DNA of 21,264 nt from a virus. This document shows, piece after piece, positions 646-6,640 of the stretch. The DNA lies in UHGV virus genome UHGV-0381259. One strand, written 5' to 3'. The notes beneath the pieces are model-generated. The model had not been told where the DNA came from. It searched no databases and worked only from the letters and a program-made list of their open reading frames with translations. A program made the position numbers and the translations under genes. The first letter of the stretch is position 1. Each line of letters begins with the position of its first letter.

Positions 646-715
646 CGCGCGCAAATATGGAAATTAGCTGCGTTTTGTTATATATAGGAGAGATATTAAA
701 AGGGTAGGCACCACT

Positions 716-1240
716 ATGACTGTTTTACACCTTGTAGCAGACCACCTTGTTAAGCAGGCTAATACAACCCATAGAAAGGGGGAGGTGCACGCAATATTAG
801 CAGATGCATATGGTCGTTCTGCTTTTAATCGGTATTATTATGCTTGTTTTCTTAACGTCCGTGAGTTTGTTTCAACTATTGATTCCAATTGGGGCAAGGT
901 CAAGCATGCAGATGTTCCAAAATTATTACGTGATAGTGTAAGTAGAAAGATAGAAGTTGAGCTCCAAAAATCAGAAAAAATTGGCGATATAACTTTATGT
1001 GAATATAAATCTAAAAAGAGCTTAATACGTACTTCACTGAACAATATGGCTTCAACTATGGCATTGGCATATACAATTAGGGGAGTTGTTGATTATGAGC
1101 CGGAAATTGAGATGATATTCTGTAATGGCAGTTTTTCGATTAATAAAACATCAGTGGCTTCGGCTAAGGGGTGGCTACAAACCATTAATTCAGAAAGATC
1201 GAAGGTTACCAGAATTATGAAGGAGATTGGCTTTGTCTAA
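716..1240 (+). CDS. Hypothetical protein, 174 aa, first gene of AT-rich cargo cassette
   Basis: Clean ATG ORF with purine-rich RBS (AAAGGGTAGG) upstream; AT-rich codon usage unlike the phage late genes; no recognisable catalytic motif. Confidence 0.6.
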   Translation: MTVLHLVADHLVKQANTTHRKGEVHAILADAYGRSAFNRYYYACFLNVREFVSTIDSNWGKVKHADVPKLLRDSVSRKIEVELQKSEKIGDITLCEYKSKKSLIRTSLNNMASTMALAYTIRGVVDYEPEIEMIFCNGSFSINKTSVASAKGWLQTINSERSKVTRIMKEIGFV

Positions 1241-1970
1241 CCAGAAAATATTATCAGAATTGTTGGTAAAATTCCCGTTCATAAAAGTTAAAGATGTAAC
1301 AGATTTTATGGATACAATTCTGTTGATCATCCCAATTAACAAAATAGTACCATTGTCTGCTTCGAATAGTATAACAAAACGCCAGATATCTTTATTGGTG
1401 AAACGAATAACAGAAAAGCTAAATGTAAGAGTGTTGATTAGTTACTCACCATTTTCAGATAAAGACAATATTGAAGCGGCTTTAGTGGCGTTAGCGAGAA
1501 GTAATTTTAAAAAAGGGAAGATATCTGATTTGAATTTATCTTTCTTTGATTCGCAAAACGCAGTGCTTTATGTCTTTTGTAAAAACCTTACATTATCAGA
1601 ACGCGAGAAGTGGGAGTCGTTAGTTGTAGGGATATTAAACGGTTTTAATATAAAAGTGACTTCATTTGTATATGAGGCTAAAAATAATCCTGAACCTACA
1701 ATGATGGTTATTTTAAGAGCGGCAAAAAAATGTCAGCCCTTTGATCTTCCAAGATTGTTCAGTCAACTTGATAATGGCGATTATCATATTGAATCACTTG
1801 ATTGGCTGAATGGGAAGCTAGACAACTTACGTAAGAAAGGATTTTTATTAAGAAGCCATGACGGAACTTATAGAATGACATTGTCAGGGTTAGAAATAGT
1901 TCCAGTGACTAAATCTAGGCAAAGTTCTGATATAGAGAGGGTCCTTTATCTTGCACGCAAACATCTATAG
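1227..1970 (+). CDS. Hypothetical protein, about 247 aa, second gene of cargo cassette (start uncertain)
   Basis: ORF overlaps the stop of the previous gene, suggesting translational coupling; track start is TTG at 1227, first in-frame ATG near 1305. Contains VRVLISYSPFSDKD and LTLSEREKWESL motifs (see findings). Confidence 0.55.
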   Translation: MALSNQKILSELLVKFPFIKVKDVTDFMDTILLIIPINKIVPLSASNSITKRQISLLVKRITEKLNVRVLISYSPFSDKDNIEAALVALARSNFKKGKISDLNLSFFDSQNAVLYVFCKNLTLSEREKWESLVVGILNGFNIKVTSFVYEAKNNPEPTMMVILRAAKKCQPFDLPRLFSQLDNGDYHIESLDWLNGKLDNLRKKGFLLRSHDGTYRMTLSGLEIVPVTKSRQSSDIERVLYLARKHL

Positions 1971-2046
1971 TGGTATATTCGCGTTGGTAGTGGCGTTCAC
2001 GAGAGTATGCATCATGCTCATTTGTGAAGGTCGCGGACAGAATGTG

Positions 2047-2097
2047 CGCCTGCGAATCAGCAGTCGTTCCTTCGAAACGTCTGCTGATTCGCAGGCG
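2047..2097 (+). ncRNA. Candidate structured RNA element: perfect 17-bp inverted repeat hairpin upstream of the RT (possible retron msd-like stem)
   Basis: CGCCTGCGAATCAGCAG (2047-2063) pairs perfectly with CTGCTGATTCGCAGGCG (2081-2097); 17-nt loop; no U-tract after the stem; 45 bp upstream of the RT start codon. Confidence 0.3.
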
Positions 2098-2141
2098 TCA
2101 TCAACGAAAGTTTTCATCAGCTTTGCTTAAGGATTGACCTT

Positions 2142-3119
2142 ATGAAAACGCCACTACCCTTATTTTTCACATTCACTGATGCCGAACAGTTTCTTAAGGC
2201 GTTGAGCACACCGCTGAGAGATAGATATTCTGCGGAACTTATTCGACTACAAGGCCTCAGGCTTCCCCCATTAGTTTCTTGGAGTATCTTGTCTGTTGCC
2301 ATTGGCGTAAGCCCACAATTTATTACTTCGTTAATTAAGAATAAGTCAAAATACTATCGTGTTTTTTCTATTTCCAAAGGAAGAGGAAAGAAAAAAAGAA
2401 TTATTGAAGCACCCAAGGTTAGTATAAAAATCATTCAGTCTTGGGTCGCTCATCATTTAAGCATTAATCATAGTCTTGGCATAAGTGAAAATGCATATGC
2501 TTTTATCCCAGGTAAGAATGGGATATATGAAGCTGCAAGTAAACATTGTGGTGCAAAATGGATCCTGTCTATTGATTTAAGAGATTTTTTCCATACGATC
2601 ACTTCAGATATAGTGATTTCAACATTAGTTGAAATCGGATATAGAGCCGATCAGGCTGCTAAATTGAGTGAATTACTTACCTTGAATCAGAGACTTCCGC
2701 AAGGTGCGCCAAGTAGCCCTGTTATCTCAAATTTAGTATTTAGGTCAACTGACTTAAAGATTAATGAGTTGATTTCTAATACGGGTATTAAATATACTAG
2801 ATATGCTGATGATTTGACCTTCTCCGGTGATGATGAAACATTTGATATCGAGGAACTTAAAGATAATGTTGTAGAGTTGTTACTATCTGATAATTGGGTT
2901 GTGGCTGAGGAAAAACTCAGAATAGCTAGGATTCCTAATAGATTAAAAGTACATGGTTTTCTAGTTCATGAAAATAAACCTAGATTGACTAAAGGCTATC
3001 GAAATAAAATTAGAGCATATAAACATTTATTGAGGACTGGGAAAATAGTTGAGAAGGATTTTGATAAAATTAAAGGGCATGTTAACTATAGTGAATATAT
3101 TGATAGATTGAATGAGTAA
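2142..3119 (+). CDS. Reverse transcriptase, retron-type (325 aa, RT core only)
   Basis: RT motifs in the ORF: ILSIDLRDFFHTI, LPQGAPSSPVISNLVF, YTRYADDLTFSG (YADD catalytic box), KVHGFLV; size and motif spacing match compact retron RTs such as Ec86 (from memory). AAGGA RBS 8 nt upstream. Confidence 0.9.
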   Translation: MKTPLPLFFTFTDAEQFLKALSTPLRDRYSAELIRLQGLRLPPLVSWSILSVAIGVSPQFITSLIKNKSKYYRVFSISKGRGKKKRIIEAPKVSIKIIQSWVAHHLSINHSLGISENAYAFIPGKNGIYEAASKHCGAKWILSIDLRDFFHTITSDIVISTLVEIGYRADQAAKLSELLTLNQRLPQGAPSSPVISNLVFRSTDLKINELISNTGIKYTRYADDLTFSGDDETFDIEELKDNVVELLLSDNWVVAEEKLRIARIPNRLKVHGFLVHENKPRLTKGYRNKIRAYKHLLRTGKIVEKDFDKIKGHVNYSEYIDRLNE

Positions 3120-3139
3120 GGGCCTAGCCCTTACTCATT
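3111..3139. terminator. Palindromic hairpin between the convergent RT and Q genes (putative bidirectional terminator)
   Basis: AATGAGTAAGGGC-cta-GCCCTTACTCATT, a perfect 13-bp inverted repeat; the RT stop (3117-3119) and Q stop (3139-3141, minus) both lie in or at the stem. Confidence 0.45.
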
Positions 3140-4170
3140 TAATTTAATGTGTATATTCCAAAGGATATGATTTTATCTCCTATCCAGTTATTTAACTCTT
3201 CTAGTCTTCTCTGTAATGGTATTAACTCATTCCTCACAAAAACAAGGCTTGCCTTCTCCACATCCCCAAAACCCCCAACATTATTAGGCATTATCCCCAT
3301 CATTTGTGGGGGTACACGATGCGCCGCCATCATGTCGTCCCGGCTTACGTTCTTGATGTTCAGAAACTCATCCTTCGCCGCGACTTCTGATAACGGGATA
3401 ATCTGAAGTCCGTCCTTTTTGCCGTTAGGAGAGTACATAAACAGATTGCGGAAGTTACCTGGTCCTTTGGCGCTTTTCATTGCATTGCGGAGGTTGTTCA
3501 CATCCTCCTGGTTTTGTGCGGCGTCGGTCATGTACATGATGAAGCCTGCATGACTGCCGTTGATGTAATACTTCCGGCGGAACAGCGTGGCGGACTCGTT
3601 GAGCAGGGCTGACGGAATGGCAGAAAGATAACCGGGCAGGCCGTAGATCTCCTGGTTGATGTCCGGTTCCATCAGATGAAAAATGCTGCCTTTCGTGAAC
3701 TGATACGGCTGGGTTGTCATACCGTATTGCACAAACCAGTAGGTATCCAGGTCTAACCCGCGTCGGGTGTATTTTGCCAGAGCAGGCTCAAGGGCGATAA
3801 CTTCACCAAACCGGTTCGTGCGTTTCTCCAGGTAGGCGTTACCAAATACCAGATAGTCCTGCACAAAACGTGAAAAAGCCTGTTGGCTGAGCAGCGGGTG
3901 AGGGATGTAGGTGCTGGTCAGAATGTTGCATTTCACCGCAATCGGTGAGCTGTGATGCACGGCGGCGCGGAAGGTTCGCGCCAGTCCGTCAAAGCTGACG
4001 GGAGGCTCATACCAGCGATCTGTCTGTACGCATTCCACATAGTCCAGCAGTTCGCGGCGGTCAAGTACTGGAATGGGATCACCGAAGCTGAAAGCCTCAG
4101 CCGTTGGAGCGTTGCCTGGTTTTGTGTTGTGATCAACCTTTACCAGTTTGATGTTTTTATGTTTGCTCAT
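3139..4170 (-). CDS. Q: Portal vertex protein Q (P2 gpQ family)
   Basis: 343-aa product with strong similarity to P2 gpQ as recalled (PVLDRR..LDYVEC...WYEPPVSF...RAAVHHSSPI...FVRNELIPLQ); correct size and position next to the terminase gene. Confidence 0.93.
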   Translation of the reverse strand: MSKHKNIKLVKVDHNTKPGNAPTAEAFSFGDPIPVLDRRELLDYVECVQTDRWYEPPVSFDGLARTFRAAVHHSSPIAVKCNILTSTYIPHPLLSQQAFSRFVQDYLVFGNAYLEKRTNRFGEVIALEPALAKYTRRGLDLDTYWFVQYGMTTQPYQFTKGSIFHLMEPDINQEIYGLPGYLSAIPSALLNESATLFRRKYYINGSHAGFIMYMTDAAQNQEDVNNLRNAMKSAKGPGNFRNLFMYSPNGKKDGLQIIPLSEVAAKDEFLNIKNVSRDDMMAAHRVPPQMMGIMPNNVGGFGDVEKASLVFVRNELIPLQRRLEELNNWIGDKIISFGIYTLN

Positions 4171-4874
4171 TCTGCCAGCTCCTCGTTAGCAAGAGGCCAT
4201 TCGCACATAAACAGCATTCCCCAGTCCTCTGCTGATAATTCTTTTTTCATATCATTCAGCCAGTTATCAGTAAACAACATTGCTCCTGATGCTACTGCAT
4301 CATCAGCGGTGAATACCATGCGGGTTACACTGTTGTTTCTGCTTAGCTTTTTATATTCCTGCCATGCCTCCGGGTTAGGGCTGGGAGTGGTGTAGTAGGT
4401 GGCGTGGTGGTGTGCGTGCAAGGACATTCCTTTGGCGAGAGTAATCATATTTCTCGGTGATTCAGCCCAGGCATACTCTGACACGTAGACATTTCCACTG
4501 AGTGCGGCGGCGTGGCACTTGAGGTCGATAAAATAAATGACCGCACCATTGGGAAACTCCAGATATGTTTTGCCAGATTTTATTTTTCCAGTGCGCGTAT
4601 AAGCTGCGGTCTGGCTTAAAAATGCTGACACATAGGCTTTGACTGCCTGCGCTGATGCGGTGCTGCAGCAGAGGAAAATCTGGTTACGCCCGGTATGCAG
4701 TGCATCGATCAGGGCCTCATAGGCAAAAAAGAAATCCGCTCCTGCCTGGCGCATTTTTGTGAGTAAACGGTTTCTACTCTTTGGGCCAGTGTTCCACTCA
4801 TACTGGTAATCAAAGAAAGTGCTATCCACCGGAAGTCCCGCGATAGTCATGAGGTTAGTTGGGATTGGGGGCAT
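4167..4874 (-). CDS. Terminase-ATPase-domain paralog (truncated gpP-like protein, about 235 aa)
   Basis: Product aligns to the N-terminal ATPase region of the adjacent gpP (FFFAYEALIDALHTGRNQIFL vs FYFAHEALIDALLTGRNQIFL; FPNGAVIYF vs LPNGATLYF; SGNVYVSEYAWA vs HGNLYLDEYFWI; LFMCEW vs LLMCEF) but has no nuclease half. Its start overlaps the P stop (TGATG) and its stop overlaps the Q start (ATGA). Confidence 0.6.
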   Translation of the reverse strand: MPPIPTNLMTIAGLPVDSTFFDYQYEWNTGPKSRNRLLTKMRQAGADFFFAYEALIDALHTGRNQIFLCCSTASAQAVKAYVSAFLSQTAAYTRTGKIKSGKTYLEFPNGAVIYFIDLKCHAAALSGNVYVSEYAWAESPRNMITLAKGMSLHAHHHATYYTTPSPNPEAWQEYKKLSRNNSVTRMVFTADDAVASGAMLFTDNWLNDMKKELSAEDWGMLFMCEWPLANEELAE

Positions 4875-6640
4875 CAAAAAATCTCCACAATATTGCTGGT
4901 ATTGGCGGACTCGCCCTGCAGCGGTTCGTTAAACAGTGCGTGCATTGTTGCCCAGGCCAGATCGGCATGGCTGGCTTCTTCGCTGCGGCTGGCTTCATAG
5001 GTCGGGCGGTTGCCGCTGGCGGTGGTGGCGCGACGGATTGCCATAAATGACTGCGCAATGTCGGTGTGCCCGGCGTCAAACTCCAGACGGCGGTGGCTGA
5101 TAATGTCGTAGGCCTTGAGTACCAGGGCGTTTTTAACGTTGGGGTTGTAGACAAACTCCCGGACGGCAGGAAAGAACGCTTTCACGTTCTCGTAAACTCC
5201 GTGACCGACACCTGTCGAGTCGATACCGATATAGGTCACGTTGTACTGTTCGGTCAGTTTTTTGATGGCGTCAGCCTGGGCGCGGAAGTCCATCCCGCGC
5301 CACTGGTGACGCTCAAGAATGCGAAACTTACCGCCTGGCACGGCTGGCGGTGCCACCACCACGCATCCGGCGCTGTCGCCGTTCTGCGTACCTTTTGCCG
5401 GGTCATAACCGATCCACACTTCTCGCCAGCCAAACGGGCGCAGGGCCAGTGCATGAAAGTCGGTCCAGACTTCCCAACTGTCCACCATGCATGCCTGCAG
5501 CTCGCTGAGCGGAAATACGGACGCGAGATCGTCCACGAATTCACACATCAGCAGGTTCTGGTATTCGTCCGGGCTGTATTCCATGCGCAACTGGTCAAGG
5601 TCGAACAGGTTACAGCCGCCGCGCACCGCATCTTCCACGGTGACTATCTGGCGGTATTGCCCGTCTGCACACAGCAGGCCTGGAGCCAGATTGCTGTGGG
5701 ACAGGTCGATGTCCACCTTGTCGGCTTTATTGCGCCCACGGTTGAATAGCGCACCGGACCAGAACGGATAAGCACTGTGTGTCAGGCTGGATGGCGTGGA
5801 AAAATAGGTTTGTCGCCATTTTTTGTGAATAGCCATACCGGAAGCCACTTTGCGCAGCTCCTGGAATTTCGGTATCCAGAAATATTCATCCAGATACAGG
5901 TTTCCGTGGTAACTCTGGGCCGTGCGGGCATTGGTGCCGAGGAAATACAGTGTGGCCCCGTTGGGAAGCACCATCGGATCGCCTTTCAGCTCCACTTCCA
6001 CTTCTTTGGCGAAGTCGATGATGTACTGCTTAAAGACGTGGGCCTGTGCCTTGCTGGCGGAAAGGAAAATCTGGTTACGTCCGGTAAGCAGAGCGTCAAT
6101 CAGGGCTTCATGGGCAAAGTAAAAGGTCGCGCCGATCTGGCGTGACTTCAGCAGGTTGCGGATGCGGTTGGTTTTTCCGGCTTCCCACCAGTGGCGCTGG
6201 TAGTTGAACATGGAGGAATGGAAGATTTCTTCCAGCTTCTCAATCTGCTCATCGGTGAAAACATTCTTTTCCGGCTGACGGCGCGGGCCTTTGTTGCGGT
6301 TGGCGACGTTAGGGTTTAAGTCGACTTCGTTGCCGCCATTGTTAAACTTGCCGATCCGCGCGTGGCGTTCCGACTGGCGCGCCAGCAGGTCAATCTCTTT
6401 GAAATCTTTCCCTTCTTTGTGCTCCTTCATAATGAGCTGGCAGTAGCGTGCGGCGGTGGTGAGCTGCATCTGATCCAGCGGCCCATAGTCACCCCACTTG
6501 TCGCGTTTCTTCCAGCTGTGAACGGTTGCAACTTTCTCGCCCAGCATTTCAGCAATGCGGGCTACACGGTATCCCTGAAAGTACAGCAGCATGGCCTGCC
6601 GACGGGGATCGAGATCTGCGGGTGTCAGTGTGGTGTTCAT
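4874..6640 (-). CDS. P: Terminase large (ATPase) subunit P (P2 gpP family)
   Basis: 588-aa product matching P2 gpP in length and sequence character; divergent from the O gene across the late promoter region. Confidence 0.93.
   Translation of the reverse strand: MNTTLTPADLDPRRQAMLLYFQGYRVARIAEMLGEKVATVHSWKKRDKWGDYGPLDQMQLTTAARYCQLIMKEHKEGKDFKEIDLLARQSERHARIGKFNNGGNEVDLNPNVANRNKGPRRQPEKNVFTDEQIEKLEEIFHSSMFNYQRHWWEAGKTNRIRNLLKSRQIGATFYFAHEALIDALLTGRNQIFLSASKAQAHVFKQYIIDFAKEVEVELKGDPMVLPNGATLYFLGTNARTAQSYHGNLYLDEYFWIPKFQELRKVASGMAIHKKWRQTYFSTPSSLTHSAYPFWSGALFNRGRNKADKVDIDLSHSNLAPGLLCADGQYRQIVTVEDAVRGGCNLFDLDQLRMEYSPDEYQNLLMCEFVDDLASVFPLSELQACMVDSWEVWTDFHALALRPFGWREVWIGYDPAKGTQNGDSAGCVVVAPPAVPGGKFRILERHQWRGMDFRAQADAIKKLTEQYNVTYIGIDSTGVGHGVYENVKAFFPAVREFVYNPNVKNALVLKAYDIISHRRLEFDAGHTDIAQSFMAIRRATTASGNRPTYEASRSEEASHADLAWATMHALFNEPLQGESANTSNIVEIF

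Follow-up and report, generated by a model that had tools for sequence, protein, structure and literature searches.

Genes of the locus and genomic setting

The window (the whole stretch of viral DNA analysed here, 21,264 nucleotides of UHGV-0381259) carries a complete type IX retron, composed of genes for a HEPN RNase and a winged-helix (WH) protein, a noncoding RNA (ncRNA) and a gene for a reverse transcriptase (RT), placed in this order. The protein-coding genes are:

716-1240, + strand: HEPN RNase effector, 174 aa (PADLOC HEPN_IX, 1.4e-52; PDB 36ht_I 'Retron-Kva2 HEPN', 5e-67)
1233-1970, + strand: winged-helix / KH-HTH partner (WH), 245 aa (PADLOC HTH_IX, 1.5e-61; PDB 36ht_B 'Retron-Kva2 WH', 3e-78)
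2142-3119, + strand: retron reverse transcriptase, 325 aa (PADLOC RT_IX, 4.2e-129; Pfam RVT_1, 5.4e-23; PDB 36ht_A 'Retron-Kva2 Reverse Transcriptase', 1.5e-145)

Type IX retrons are a known anti-phage system and the type was defined by Mestre et al. (2020, PMC7736814). The elements by which it is recognised were all found, namely the RT, the HEPN protein, the WH protein with the operon order and the family-specific ncRNA. The RT_IX model matches the RT over its full length, the runner-up PADLOC model being RT_II-A (6e-67). Catalytic and msDNA-contact residues are kept across the proteins of the locus: the RT, which starts with an ATG at 2142, presents R73, F75 and an intact YxDD active site (YADD, 221-224); the HEPN protein, for which no Pfam match was obtained, retains H10, Q14, Y40-42, H64 and R122, including the non-canonical conserved His/Arg (H64/R122); and the WH protein, whose gene start overlaps the HEPN stop by 8 nt, retains R50, Q51, K57, D197, R200, K201 and R207.

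The same gene order and spacing recur in 10 relatives, where about 171 nt (170-172) separate WH from RT. The retron belongs to a P2-like prophage of E. coli, in which it occupies the gpA-gpQ defence hotspot, and was found in 3 of 5,426 complete genomes (E. coli). The RefSeq annotation of the locus consists only of a 'reverse transcriptase family protein' and two hypothetical proteins, and the bounds of the HEPN gene are the same as those of the RefSeq CDS. A terminator-like hairpin is present after the RT gene.

Structure of the noncoding RNA

A sequence-only reading of this DNA had proposed that a retron msr-msd RNA lies directly upstream of the retron RT and that a long hairpin within it is the msd stem copied into DNA, and both proposals are borne out by homology and by a covariance model. 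We are highly confident that positions 1986-2158 (+) of the window are the msr-msd ncRNA of a type IX retron with the gene order HEPN, WH, ncRNA, RT. Its elements are:

1986-2158, + strand: retron ncRNA (msr-msd), 173 nt, placed by position match with the Kva2 ncRNA, by the covariance model and by its fold
1986-1997, + strand: a2, 5' arm of the closing helix, GGTAGTGGCGTT, 12/12 complementary to 2147-2158
1998-2026, + strand: msr stem-loop 1, with a lower 3-bp stem (1998-2000/2024-2026) and an upper 7-bp stem (2003-2009/2013-2019)
2030-2105, + strand: msd template, the reverse complement of which is the predicted 76-nt msdDNA, 5'-GTTGATGACGCC...TCCGCGAC-3'
2047-2097, + strand: msd hairpin, the one noticed by the sequence-only reading, a 22-bp stem with one mismatch and a 7-nt loop in a conserved TCCTTCGAA motif
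2106-2125, + strand: stem-loop 3, G-AAAG / CTTT-G with a variable loop; by comparison with Kva2, G2125 is the proposed branching G and G2106 the opposing G
2147-2158, + strand: a1, 3' arm of the closing helix, AACGCCACTACC, inside RT codons 2-6

The interval 1986-2158 alone folds with a z of -8.09, and its 3' end overlaps the RT ORF by 17 nt. It is closed by terminal inverted repeats (1986-1997 / 2147-2158), as expected of a retron in general.

The hairpin is real and is the DNA-templating msd stem-loop of the type IX msr-msd RNA, so the core of the earlier interpretation stands. The perfect 17-bp inverted repeat described at 2047-2063 / 2081-2097 is present; its supposed 17-nt loop is not, since the arms extend to 22 nt (2047-2068 / 2076-2097, 95% complementary, with a T.T at 2064/2080 as the sole mismatch) and leave a loop of 7 nt (2069-2075). 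Changes on both sides were seen in 21/24 pairs of this hairpin, and the loop motif is kept in nearly all aligned loci. Read as DNA (TTCGAAGGA), this loop corresponds to the tip that is read by the HTH domain in Yin1/Sen3 (Carabias et al. bioRxiv 10.64898/2026.07.14.737667). The predicted msdDNA folded as DNA gives -28.8 kcal/mol (z -8.0), and the template reproduces the Kva2 residues dG1-dA5, dT6, dA8, C9/G59/A61, G10/C58/C60, dA63, dT64-dT69, dG68 and dC76. The mature msdDNA probably starts at dT6, the complement of 2100.

The hairpin is also GC-rich within AT-rich DNA, as had been remarked (0.59, with 0.49 in the ncRNA as a whole, versus 0.35 in the flanking HEPN/WH and RT genes). Its perfect GC-rich stem, the intergenic gap and the AT-rich surroundings might suggest that, instead of being a templating RNA, it separates WH from RT as an intrinsic terminator or attenuator, or that it is a palindrome bound by a protein. 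We give this explanation practically no credence. An intrinsic terminator is a GC-rich hairpin directly followed by a U-tract; right after the msd stem the sequence is TCATCAACG, without a T-tract, and no terminator-like site was called at 2047-2105, where the hairpin tail is TCATCAACGAAAG, in agreement with the sequence-only reading on this point. Moreover, the loop sequence is kept while the stem covaries over phyla-level distances, alongside three other helices, and the Kva2 homologue of this segment was observed as DNA in a cryo-EM structure.

In stem-loop 1, pairing of the upper stem is complete (100%) and includes G-U wobbles as well as 2 pairs that covary; the lower stem was predicted by RNAalifold (CG:17/GC:13 and GC:19/AU:11). 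The Kva2 counterpart of this stem-loop, G18-C34, is bound by the RT thumb in the Retron-Kva2 structure. In stem-loop 3, the AAAG/CTTT stem and its flanking Gs are invariant or nearly so in those sequences that have letters there (29 of 31 distinct ones), while the length of the loop ranges from 4 to 21 nt among relatives; because this stem hardly varies, covariation speaks neither for nor against it.

Homology searches and covariation

Ten enterobacterial loci were used to build a covariance model, which matched at full length immediately before the RT in 9/9 distant type IX genomes, in which the RT is 38-45% identical. On 71 other (non-IX) retron-RT loci it gave no full-length match and only one weak match confined to the hairpin (L013, 25.5 bits). 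The model also picks up 32 metagenome or viral loci. In the window it scores 221 bits on the + strand versus 61.6 bits on the - strand, and this score, together with the G-U wobbles of stem-loop 1, backs the + strand for the ncRNA. The RNA is near-palindromic, and reverse-strand matches of the model were left out of the final alignment.

Over the whole structure 94.9% of cells are paired, versus 72.4% in shuffles and 36-46% when the partners are slid, and 36/47 pairs present changes on both sides. Plain MAFFT alignment of the distant sequences misregistered a1 and stem-loop 3, and the pairs were therefore counted on the alignment fitted to the model. Such an alignment is biased towards the structure, a bias that was lessened by the slide controls, a MAFFT alignment and an alignment-free test; RNAalifold finds the same helices again. 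For the closing helix, changes on both sides occur in 12/12 pairs and 97.8% of cells are paired (31 distinct sequences). The alignment-free test gave a median run of 12 bp, with 31/36 loci better than 99% of shuffles, and in the RNAduplex shuffle test 1986-1997 / 2147-2158 reached a z of -2.5, with 1.1% of shuffles as good. The present analysis demonstrates the gene set and its catalytic residues, the homology, the strand of the RNA, and the helices together with their covariation.

The ncRNA of the window is 96.5% identical to that of a K. variicola locus and 89% identical to that of L351, a locus with an RT that shares about 98% identity with the RT of the solved Kva2 complex. Rfam holds no family for the type IX ncRNA and returned only spurious MIR405 matches, to the terminator-like hairpin after the RT gene. 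Searching genome contigs with the RT alone gave no relative; an alignment-based RT search, with matches swelled by generic RT motifs, gave 9 type IX loci among the 80 listed. An exact 14-mer (CATTTGTGAAGGTC) scanned against viral contigs returned mostly chance matches and was outdone by a gapped motif combining the msd loop and stem-loop 3, for which filtering with the model was still required. No match was obtained in the phage collection, and the plasmid collection gave two distant RTs only.

Boundaries and putative transcript start

The sequence-only reading had bounded the RNA at 1919-2126, by an a1/a2 pairing of 1919-1931 with 2116-2126, the whole ending before the RT start; in such a model the branching G would lie just 3' of 1931. 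The complementarity exists, as 11 bp with a 2-nt bulge. Folding of 1900-2145, which had been proposed as a check, uses and even extends this stem (MFE -90.8, z -5.54), which is retained at 7-11/11 positions within the enterobacterial clade; an ungapped run of 11 bp, which the window shares with K. variicola L081, is better than 98% of shuffles in both. Nevertheless, the stem is no better than chance: when 1900-1985 was paired with 2098-2141 in RNAduplex, 36% of dinucleotide shuffles paired at least as well (z -0.27). The pairing had been put forward with the warning that it could be chance. RNAduplex is in itself a weak test, because long segments give low energies even for shuffles; the alignment-free test places the stem at a median complementary run of 7 bp, equal to chance.

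Comparison of loci points the same way. Covariation had been suggested as a check for both stems, and the msd hairpin passed it, while variation on either arm of the supposed a1/a2 is never compensated (e.g. ATCAG -> ATCGA, GCAAAG -> AACTAG). The 5' arm consists of conserved WH codons (R-Q-S-S-D) and the CTTTGC of the 3' arm is already taken by the invariant stem-loop 3. Distant type IX loci pair at 4-8/11 positions, about chance, and the ATCAG part is missing there because the loop of stem-loop 3 is shorter. Finally, the first nucleotide of the published msdDNA pairs with 2105 and not with 2115 (Hayashi et al. bioRxiv 10.64898/2026.07.14.738597), and a conserved promoter-like motif would set the start of transcription downstream of the 5' arm. 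We therefore hold the bounds 1919-2126 to be very improbable: the RNA spans 1986-2158 and runs into the RT ORF, and it is because its 3' arm lies in this ORF that the real closing helix was missed. The identification of a retron was correct but ordinary, and the ends of its RNA were misplaced.

The promoter-like motif is located as follows:

1951-1979, + strand: putative internal sigma-70 promoter at the 3' end of the WH gene (-35 TTGCAC at 1951-1956, 17-nt spacer, -10 TATATT at 1974-1979)

A TTGnnn-N17-TAnnnT motif ending 5-7 nt before the first base of a2 is present in 27/36 distinct type IX loci versus 0.27% of other positions, and the spacer is 17 nt in every locus that bears it. The -35 falls in conserved Leu-Ala codons, and with 8/12 consensus matches the motif is sub-threshold in a generic promoter scan. 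Its position suggests that transcription may start at about 1986, from a promoter in the WH gene.

Proposed mechanism and branch point

The ncRNA folds into four helices, namely the a2/a1 closing helix, the msr stem-loop, the long msd hairpin and the small invariant stem-loop. By homology with Retron-Kva2, Sen3 and Yin1, the msr stem-loop (1998-2026) would dock the RT thumb, and the RT would prime from the 2'-OH of a guanosine; the one proposed in the literature ends the 3' side of stem-loop 3 and corresponds to G2125 of the window. Copying would proceed from 2105 back to 2030 and halt at G2029/G2030; RNase H would then strip the template and ExoVII would trim about 5 nt, giving a DNA hairpin of about 71 nt with the tip TTCGAAGGA. 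This msDNA, with the RT and the WH protein, would cage the HEPN RNase until a phage nuclease or DNA-binding protein attacking the msDNA frees it, and the freed HEPN would cut tRNA/rRNA so that the infection is aborted. Production of msDNA was shown for Kva2, Sen3 and Yin1 (bioRxiv 10.64898/2026.07.14.738597; bioRxiv 10.64898/2026.07.14.737667) and an anti-phage abortive-infection phenotype for Kva2 and Sen3. By analogy, the E. coli strain carrying the locus would be expected to produce msDNA, and the locus to confer defence.

Two conserved Gs are candidates for the branching residue, G2125 at stem-loop 3 and G2001 after a2. The first follows Hayashi et al., who propose G139/G121 as the branching/opposing Gs of Kva2 (bioRxiv 10.64898/2026.07.14.738597); the stem-loop 3 of the window is 1 nt longer than the published one, so G139 is equivalent to G2125 and not to 2124. 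That proposal was drawn by one group from sequencing coverage, the reads covering mainly G45-A115 of the Kva2 msDNA, and the branch itself was not seen (bioRxiv 10.64898/2026.07.14.738597). With canonical priming of the same ncRNA (1986-2158), the branching G would be G2001 and the RT would start beside a1, near position 2146; host nucleases would then remove roughly the first 40 nt of the cDNA, with the stem-loop 3 copy among them, leaving the observed product. We consider this course of events possible, if somewhat doubtful. To our knowledge, the branching G comes after a2 in all classical retrons, and G2001, just 3' of a2, is invariant in 19 sequences. The type IX architecture is called canonical by Carabias et al. 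(bioRxiv 10.64898/2026.07.14.737667), and for Kva2 it is accepted that the 5' end of the msDNA undergoes trimming of the ExoVII type (Hayashi et al. bioRxiv 10.64898/2026.07.14.738597). On the other hand, G2001 is placed 3 nt off the end of the a2 helix, within an internal loop that belongs to the extended stem-loop 1, which covaries, and the extreme sequence conservation of stem-loop 3, with its freely varying loop, would be unexplained if it were a discarded template. These observations, added to the read coverage of Kva2, lead us to suggest G2125 as the branch point.

The type IX ncRNA could also be read as a circular permutation of the classical retron RNA, with the branching G in a local stem-loop 3' of the msd and the a1/a2 helix acting as a clamp that ties the 5' and 3' ends and not as a priming stem, although we rate this as rather unlikely. 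The clamp would comprise the first RT codons, so that any one transcript could serve for RT synthesis or, once folded, as a substrate of reverse transcription, a built-in switch between the two. The WH gene might then harbour a promoter specific to the RNA, and the upstream complementarity noted in the sequence-only reading could, within the enterobacterial clade, mask stem-loop 3 on read-through operon mRNA.

Significance and comparison with known retrons

The locus provides an annotation for an RNA gene without entry in RefSeq and Rfam, and a complete HEPN-type retron is recognised among the cargo that P2-like prophages of E. coli carry at this hotspot. The gain for the field is small, since the RNA, structure and mechanism of the family were already described in 2020 and 2026. 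What may be useful is the independent covariation support for the 173-nt boundaries, the location of a1 inside the RT ORF and the conserved promoter-like motif that would fix the 5' end of the RNA; these boundaries matter because three 2026 preprints number the type IX RNA differently.

The closest described system is Retron-Kva2 of Klebsiella variicola, also of type IX (PDB 36ht; Hayashi et al. bioRxiv 10.64898/2026.07.14.738597; Hibshman et al. PMC13405049), which shares the operon order and whose solved complex (PDB 36ht) is matched by all three proteins of the window. Also shared are the sizes of HEPN (174 aa) and WH (245 aa), YADD 221-224, HEPN H64/R122, the 173-nt ncRNA with four helices, the msd loop and the G of RT termination. 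The published Kva2 numbering maps nucleotide for nucleotide onto 1986-2158, with the exceptions given here; the msr numbering of Hibshman et al. starts 28 nt further upstream (offset +28; PMC13405049). The differences are an RT of 325 aa versus 327, about 64% identical (P0018); 1 nt more in stem-loop 3 and 1 nt less before the ATG; G2036/dC70 in place of Kva2 U51/dA70; several compensated changes in stem-loop 1 and the msd stem; L54 for N54 in WH and L103 for M103 in HEPN; and the host, which is E. coli with the element in a P2-like prophage.

Retron-Sen3 (Salmonella enterica subsp. arizonae) and Retron-Yin1 (Yersinia intermedia), type IX as well, were compared by their published descriptions and share RT D223/D224, HEPN H64 and the msDNA tip; D197, R200, K201 and R207 of the WH/HTH protein of the window occur at the exact Sen3 numbering (bioRxiv 10.64898/2026.07.14.737667). 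A partial Salmonella enterica RT (P0012) is 100% identical to that of the window over 78% of its length.

With classical retrons, such as Retron-Eco1 (Ec86), the locus shares an RT of the retron clade (PDB 7v9u, 7e-33), terminal inverted repeats closing the ncRNA, an RT-bound msr stem-loop and a long msd hairpin copied to msDNA. It differs from them in that the effector genes precede the ncRNA, that a1 is inside the RT ORF, that there are two partner proteins (HEPN and WH), and that the proposed branching G would be 3' of the msd in a local stem-loop and not directly after a2, which would make for a circularly permuted layout.

Gene content and genomic setting

The hairpin upstream of the reverse transcriptase (RT) gene was correctly recognized, by a sequence-only reading, as part of a retron noncoding RNA (ncRNA), although the boundaries proposed for it were wrong. 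The ORF at 2142-3119 encodes an RT (Pfam RVT_1) which, when searched against an anti-phage defence library, matched RT_IX over its full length (4.2e-129), and in the same library ORF 716-1240 matched HEPN_IX (1.4e-52) and ORF 1227/1233-1970, here called WH, matched HTH_IX (1.5e-61). A gene set of RT, HEPN and HTH is the definition of type IX retrons (Mestre et al. 2020, PMC7736814). Moreover, all three proteins match PDB 36ht, 'Retron-Kva2' (RT 1.5e-145, WH 3e-78, HEPN 5e-67), and the essential residues of the published type IX retrons Kva2, Sen3 and Yin1 are kept with the same numbering: H10, Q14, Y40-42, H64 and R122 in HEPN; R50, Q51, K57, D197, R200, K201 and R207 in WH; and R73, F75 and YADD 221-224 in the RT.

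716-1240, +, HEPN gene
1233-1970, +, WH gene
1986-2158, +, ncRNA
2142-3119, +, RT gene

The HEPN stop and the WH start, a TTG codon, overlap by 8 nt (1233-1240), as they do in most related loci (7-10 nt), an arrangement compatible with translational coupling of the toxin to the antitoxin. Directly 5' of the HEPN gene lies a RefSeq pseudogene with an internal stop (~519-707, +), a stretch within which the promoter of the HEPN-WH operon should be found, and a DinI-like gene is placed at 118-423.

Over the retron segment (700-3140) the window and E. coli MFDS1016424 are 100% identical, and among 5,426 complete E. coli genomes only 3 contain this segment. In RefSeq the RT is a 'reverse transcriptase family protein', HEPN and WH are hypothetical and the RNA is unannotated. 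In P2 the terminase genes adjoin the portal gene. In the window an extra ORF of 236 aa (4167-4877, -), annotated 'terminase large subunit domain-containing protein', is placed between the portal gene and that of the 588-aa terminase ATPase, with a 4-nt overlap with each. Within a P2-like prophage, the retron itself occupies the slot bounded by the replication endonuclease (gpA) side and the portal gene (gpQ); this slot has been described as a hotspot for anti-phage cargo (Rousset et al., PMC9122126). A perfect 14-bp hairpin with a 3-nt loop (GAATGAGTAAGGGC cta GCCCTTACTCATT; window 3101-3149) is located between the RT and portal genes, which converge on it, and overlaps the stop codon of the RT. 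It is probably a bidirectional terminator; the MIR405 Rfam matches on both of its strands are spurious.

Boundaries and fold of the ncRNA

Type IX RNA is numbered differently in three 2026 preprints: the numbering of Hibshman et al. begins 28 nt further upstream than that of Hayashi et al. (msr G72 is Hayashi G44, and the msdDNA is offset by 7), and the msDNA positions of Carabias et al. are offset by 5. According to Hayashi et al. (bioRxiv 10.64898/2026.07.14.738597) the Kva2 ncRNA has 173 nt, of which G1-A17 are not visible in the structure, followed by a stem-loop (G18-C34), a linker (A35-G44), the template of the 76-nt msdDNA (G45-C120) and stem-loop 3 (G121-G139), with the 3' end at C173. 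When nucleotide 1 is set at window 1986, essentially all base identities quoted for Kva2 are recovered, in the RNA (G1, A17, G18, C34, A35, U37-U40, A42, G44, G45, A52, A115, C120, G121) as well as in the DNA (dG1-dA5, GTTGA; dT6, dA8, C9/G59/A61, G10/C58/C60, dA63, dT64-dT69, dG68, dC76). The window differs from Kva2 in that its stem-loop 3 is one base longer, Kva2 G139 corresponding to G2125, and in having G2036/dC70 for U51/dA70; the Hayashi text has 'G45-A51', and a Kva2-type sequence has U51. One Kva2-type locus, L351, was recovered; its RT shares ~98% identity with that of 36ht, and its RNA fits the Hayashi numbering exactly (19-nt stem-loop 3, 173 nt in total). The window ncRNA is 89% identical to L351 and 96.5% to L081, another K. 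variicola locus.

The ends of the 173-nt RNA are 1986-1997 (a2, GGTAGTGGCGTT) and 2147-2158 (a1, AACGCCACTACC) and not the bounds 1919-2126 proposed earlier. The repeat finder reports these two segments as a 12/12 inverted repeat, and a1 lies inside the RT ORF, in codons 2-6. Folded alone, the RNA forms all four helices (z -8.09).

For the msd hairpin the repeat finder gave arms of 22 nt (2047-2068 / 2076-2097), 95% complementary, with a 7-nt gap. The perfect 17-bp repeat noted previously (2047-2063 / 2081-2097) makes up the outer portion of the stem, but its 17-nt loop has to be reduced to 7 nt, since past a single T.T mismatch (2064/2080) four further pairs are formed. It is indeed a GC-rich hairpin in AT-rich DNA (GC 0.59, as compared with 0.49 for the ncRNA interval and 0.35 for the flanking genes) and, as also noted, it does not resemble a terminator, no site being called there by the terminator scan. 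The predicted msdDNA, folded as DNA, forms a hairpin of -28.8 kcal/mol (z -8.0).

Comparative analysis of the RNA structure

The comparison comprised ten close enterobacterial loci (RT 61-88% identical), nine distant ones, also type IX, taken from genome assemblies (RT 38-45% identical), and a third set from viral and metagenome contigs, retrieved with a motif from the msd loop and stem-loop 3. A covariance model of the Kva2-type structure, trained on the close set only, gave a full-length match directly 5' of the RT in every one of the distant loci (nine of nine) and matched 32 further loci. With 71 loci of other retron types as comparison, no full-length match was obtained, the sole match being a weak, hairpin-only one on the reverse strand of L013. 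In the alignment of 31 distinct sequences, standard pairs occupied 94.9% of cells, against 72.4% in shuffles and 36-46% with partners slid by 1-3 columns, and 36 of the 47 pairs showed changes on both sides. The msd hairpin, for which a covariation test had been suggested, covaries in 21 of 24 pairs.

Pairing and covariation in the other helices of the ncRNA (+ strand)
a2/a1 helix: 12 of 12 pairs covarying; 97.8% paired
msr stem-loop, upper stem: paired in 100%, with covariation in two pairs and numerous G-U/A-U/G-C exchanges
stem-loop 3 (AAAG/CTTT): invariant or nearly so, and thus uninformative for covariation

RNAalifold predicted the same helices and added a 3-bp lower msr stem (1998-2000 / 2024-2026) that covaries strongly (CG:17/GC:13, GC:19/AU:11). 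The invariant G2001-A2002 is placed in the internal loop between the lower and upper msr stems. Since a model-fitted alignment is biased towards its own structure, an alignment-free test was added, in which, for 36 loci, the 22 nt 5' of the msr stem-loop and the 50 nt 3' of stem-loop 3 were searched for their longest complementary stretch without gaps. The median run was 12 bp, and in 31 of the 36 loci the run exceeded that of 99% of shuffles. The strand is settled as +, because the model scores 221 bits on + and 61.6 on -, and because of the G-U wobbles in the msr stem-loop.

The upstream stem

The pairing of 1919-1931 with 2116-2126 (11 bp and a 2-nt bulge), formerly taken as a1/a2, is present in the sequence but is not a retron terminal repeat. 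Folding 1900-2145 with RNAfold, as had been proposed, does use and extend this stem (-90.8 kcal/mol, z -5.54). Its 5' arm, G-CAA-AGT-TCT-GAT, codes for R-Q-S-S-D, which belongs to a motif conserved in the C-terminal part of WH, S-[SP]-D-[IV], and within its 3' arm CTTTGC forms the 3' strand of stem-loop 3, which is invariant. With the WH motif and stem-loop 3 as anchors, 7-11 of the 11 scored positions pair in the enterobacterial clade, where pairing is kept because both arms are nearly unchanged, and 4-8 pair in distant loci, which lack the ATCAG segment because the loop of stem-loop 3 is shorter. The compensatory covariation sought in this stem was not seen: one arm changes and the other does not, as in ATCAG to ATCGA (three loci) and GCAAAG to AAACAG or AACTAG (two loci). 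Between the WH 3' region and the 3' region of stem-loop 3, the alignment-free median run was 7 bp, equal to shuffles, and values below 5% were obtained in only 3 of 36 loci. In the window 36% of dinucleotide shuffles pair at least equally well (z -0.27); the corresponding value for a2/a1 is 1.1% (z -2.5). We conclude that this stem is a chance or lineage-specific complementarity.

Another 11-nt complementarity (91%) joins 2110-2120 and 2139-2149 (GTTTTCATCAG / CTTATGAAAAC). This candidate pairing would sequester the start codon of the RT, in competition with both stem-loop 3 and a1; it occurs in the enterobacterial clade only, since other loci have a shorter stem-loop 3 loop and a shorter spacer.

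A putative internal promoter

In 27 of 36 distinct type IX loci a promoter-like motif, TTGnnn-N17-TAnnnT, ends 5-7 nt before a2 begins, always with a 17-nt spacer; elsewhere in these loci 0.27% of positions pass the same test.

1951-1956 TTGCAC and 1974-1979 TATATT, promoter-like motif at the 3' end of the WH gene

Transcription from this putative promoter would start at ~1986 and give the ncRNA-RT unit a start of its own, in which case the 5' arm of the upstream stem would be outside the primary ncRNA transcript. The -35 falls in conserved Leu-Ala codons, which makes it weaker as evidence; the -10 spans the WH stop codon and a poorly conserved spacer, with only the T-A...T positions kept. The generic promoter scan missed the site because it scores 8/12.

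Proposed mechanism and branch point

Homology, fold, gene set and residues were seen in this analysis, and the mechanism is drawn from the three 2026 studies. The RT thumb would bind the msr stem-loop, and the RT would prime from a guanosine 2'-OH and copy from 2105 to 2030, stalling with a template G (G44, here 2029) flipped out. RNase H would then remove the template and ExoVII ~5 nt, leaving a hairpin DNA of ~71 nt with its 3' end base-paired to the msr. The HTH domain would read the hairpin tip TTCGAAGGA, and the complex of msDNA, RT and WH would enclose a HEPN dimer, until interference with the msDNA by phage nucleases or by a DNA-binding protein frees the RNase to cut tRNA/rRNA.

Carabias et al. 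regard the type IX architecture as canonical. Hayashi et al. place the branching G at the foot of stem-loop 3 (G2125 in the window), as inferred from sequencing coverage, and call such a branch point unlike typical retrons (bioRxiv 10.64898/2026.07.14.738597). The stem of stem-loop 3 and its flanking Gs are almost invariant and its loop varies freely from 4 to 21 nt, a conservation pattern which fits a sequence-specific priming stem better than a discarded template. We lean towards G2125 as the branching G, with some reserve; G2001, after a2, is also invariant and is a possible but rather doubtful candidate for the same role.

Related loci and comparison with known retrons

Near-identical type IX retrons occur on different mobile elements (L081, L083, L085, L086, L089). 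Some relatives occupy the same gpA-portal slot in P2-like prophages of K. variicola and Pantoea, one in Citrobacter lies in an integrase island adjoining smpB, and those in Yersinia and Pectobacterium adjoin ArdC/TrwB conjugation genes.

The window carries a new, unannotated member of a family already characterized at the level of RNA, structure and mechanism, which makes it ordinary as a discovery. Of modest interest are the position of a1 within the RT coding sequence, a possible internal promoter and the proposed permuted layout of priming. The window RT shares 100% identity with a partial RT of Salmonella enterica (P0012), and the element may therefore be Retron-Sen3, as published, or a close copy of it.
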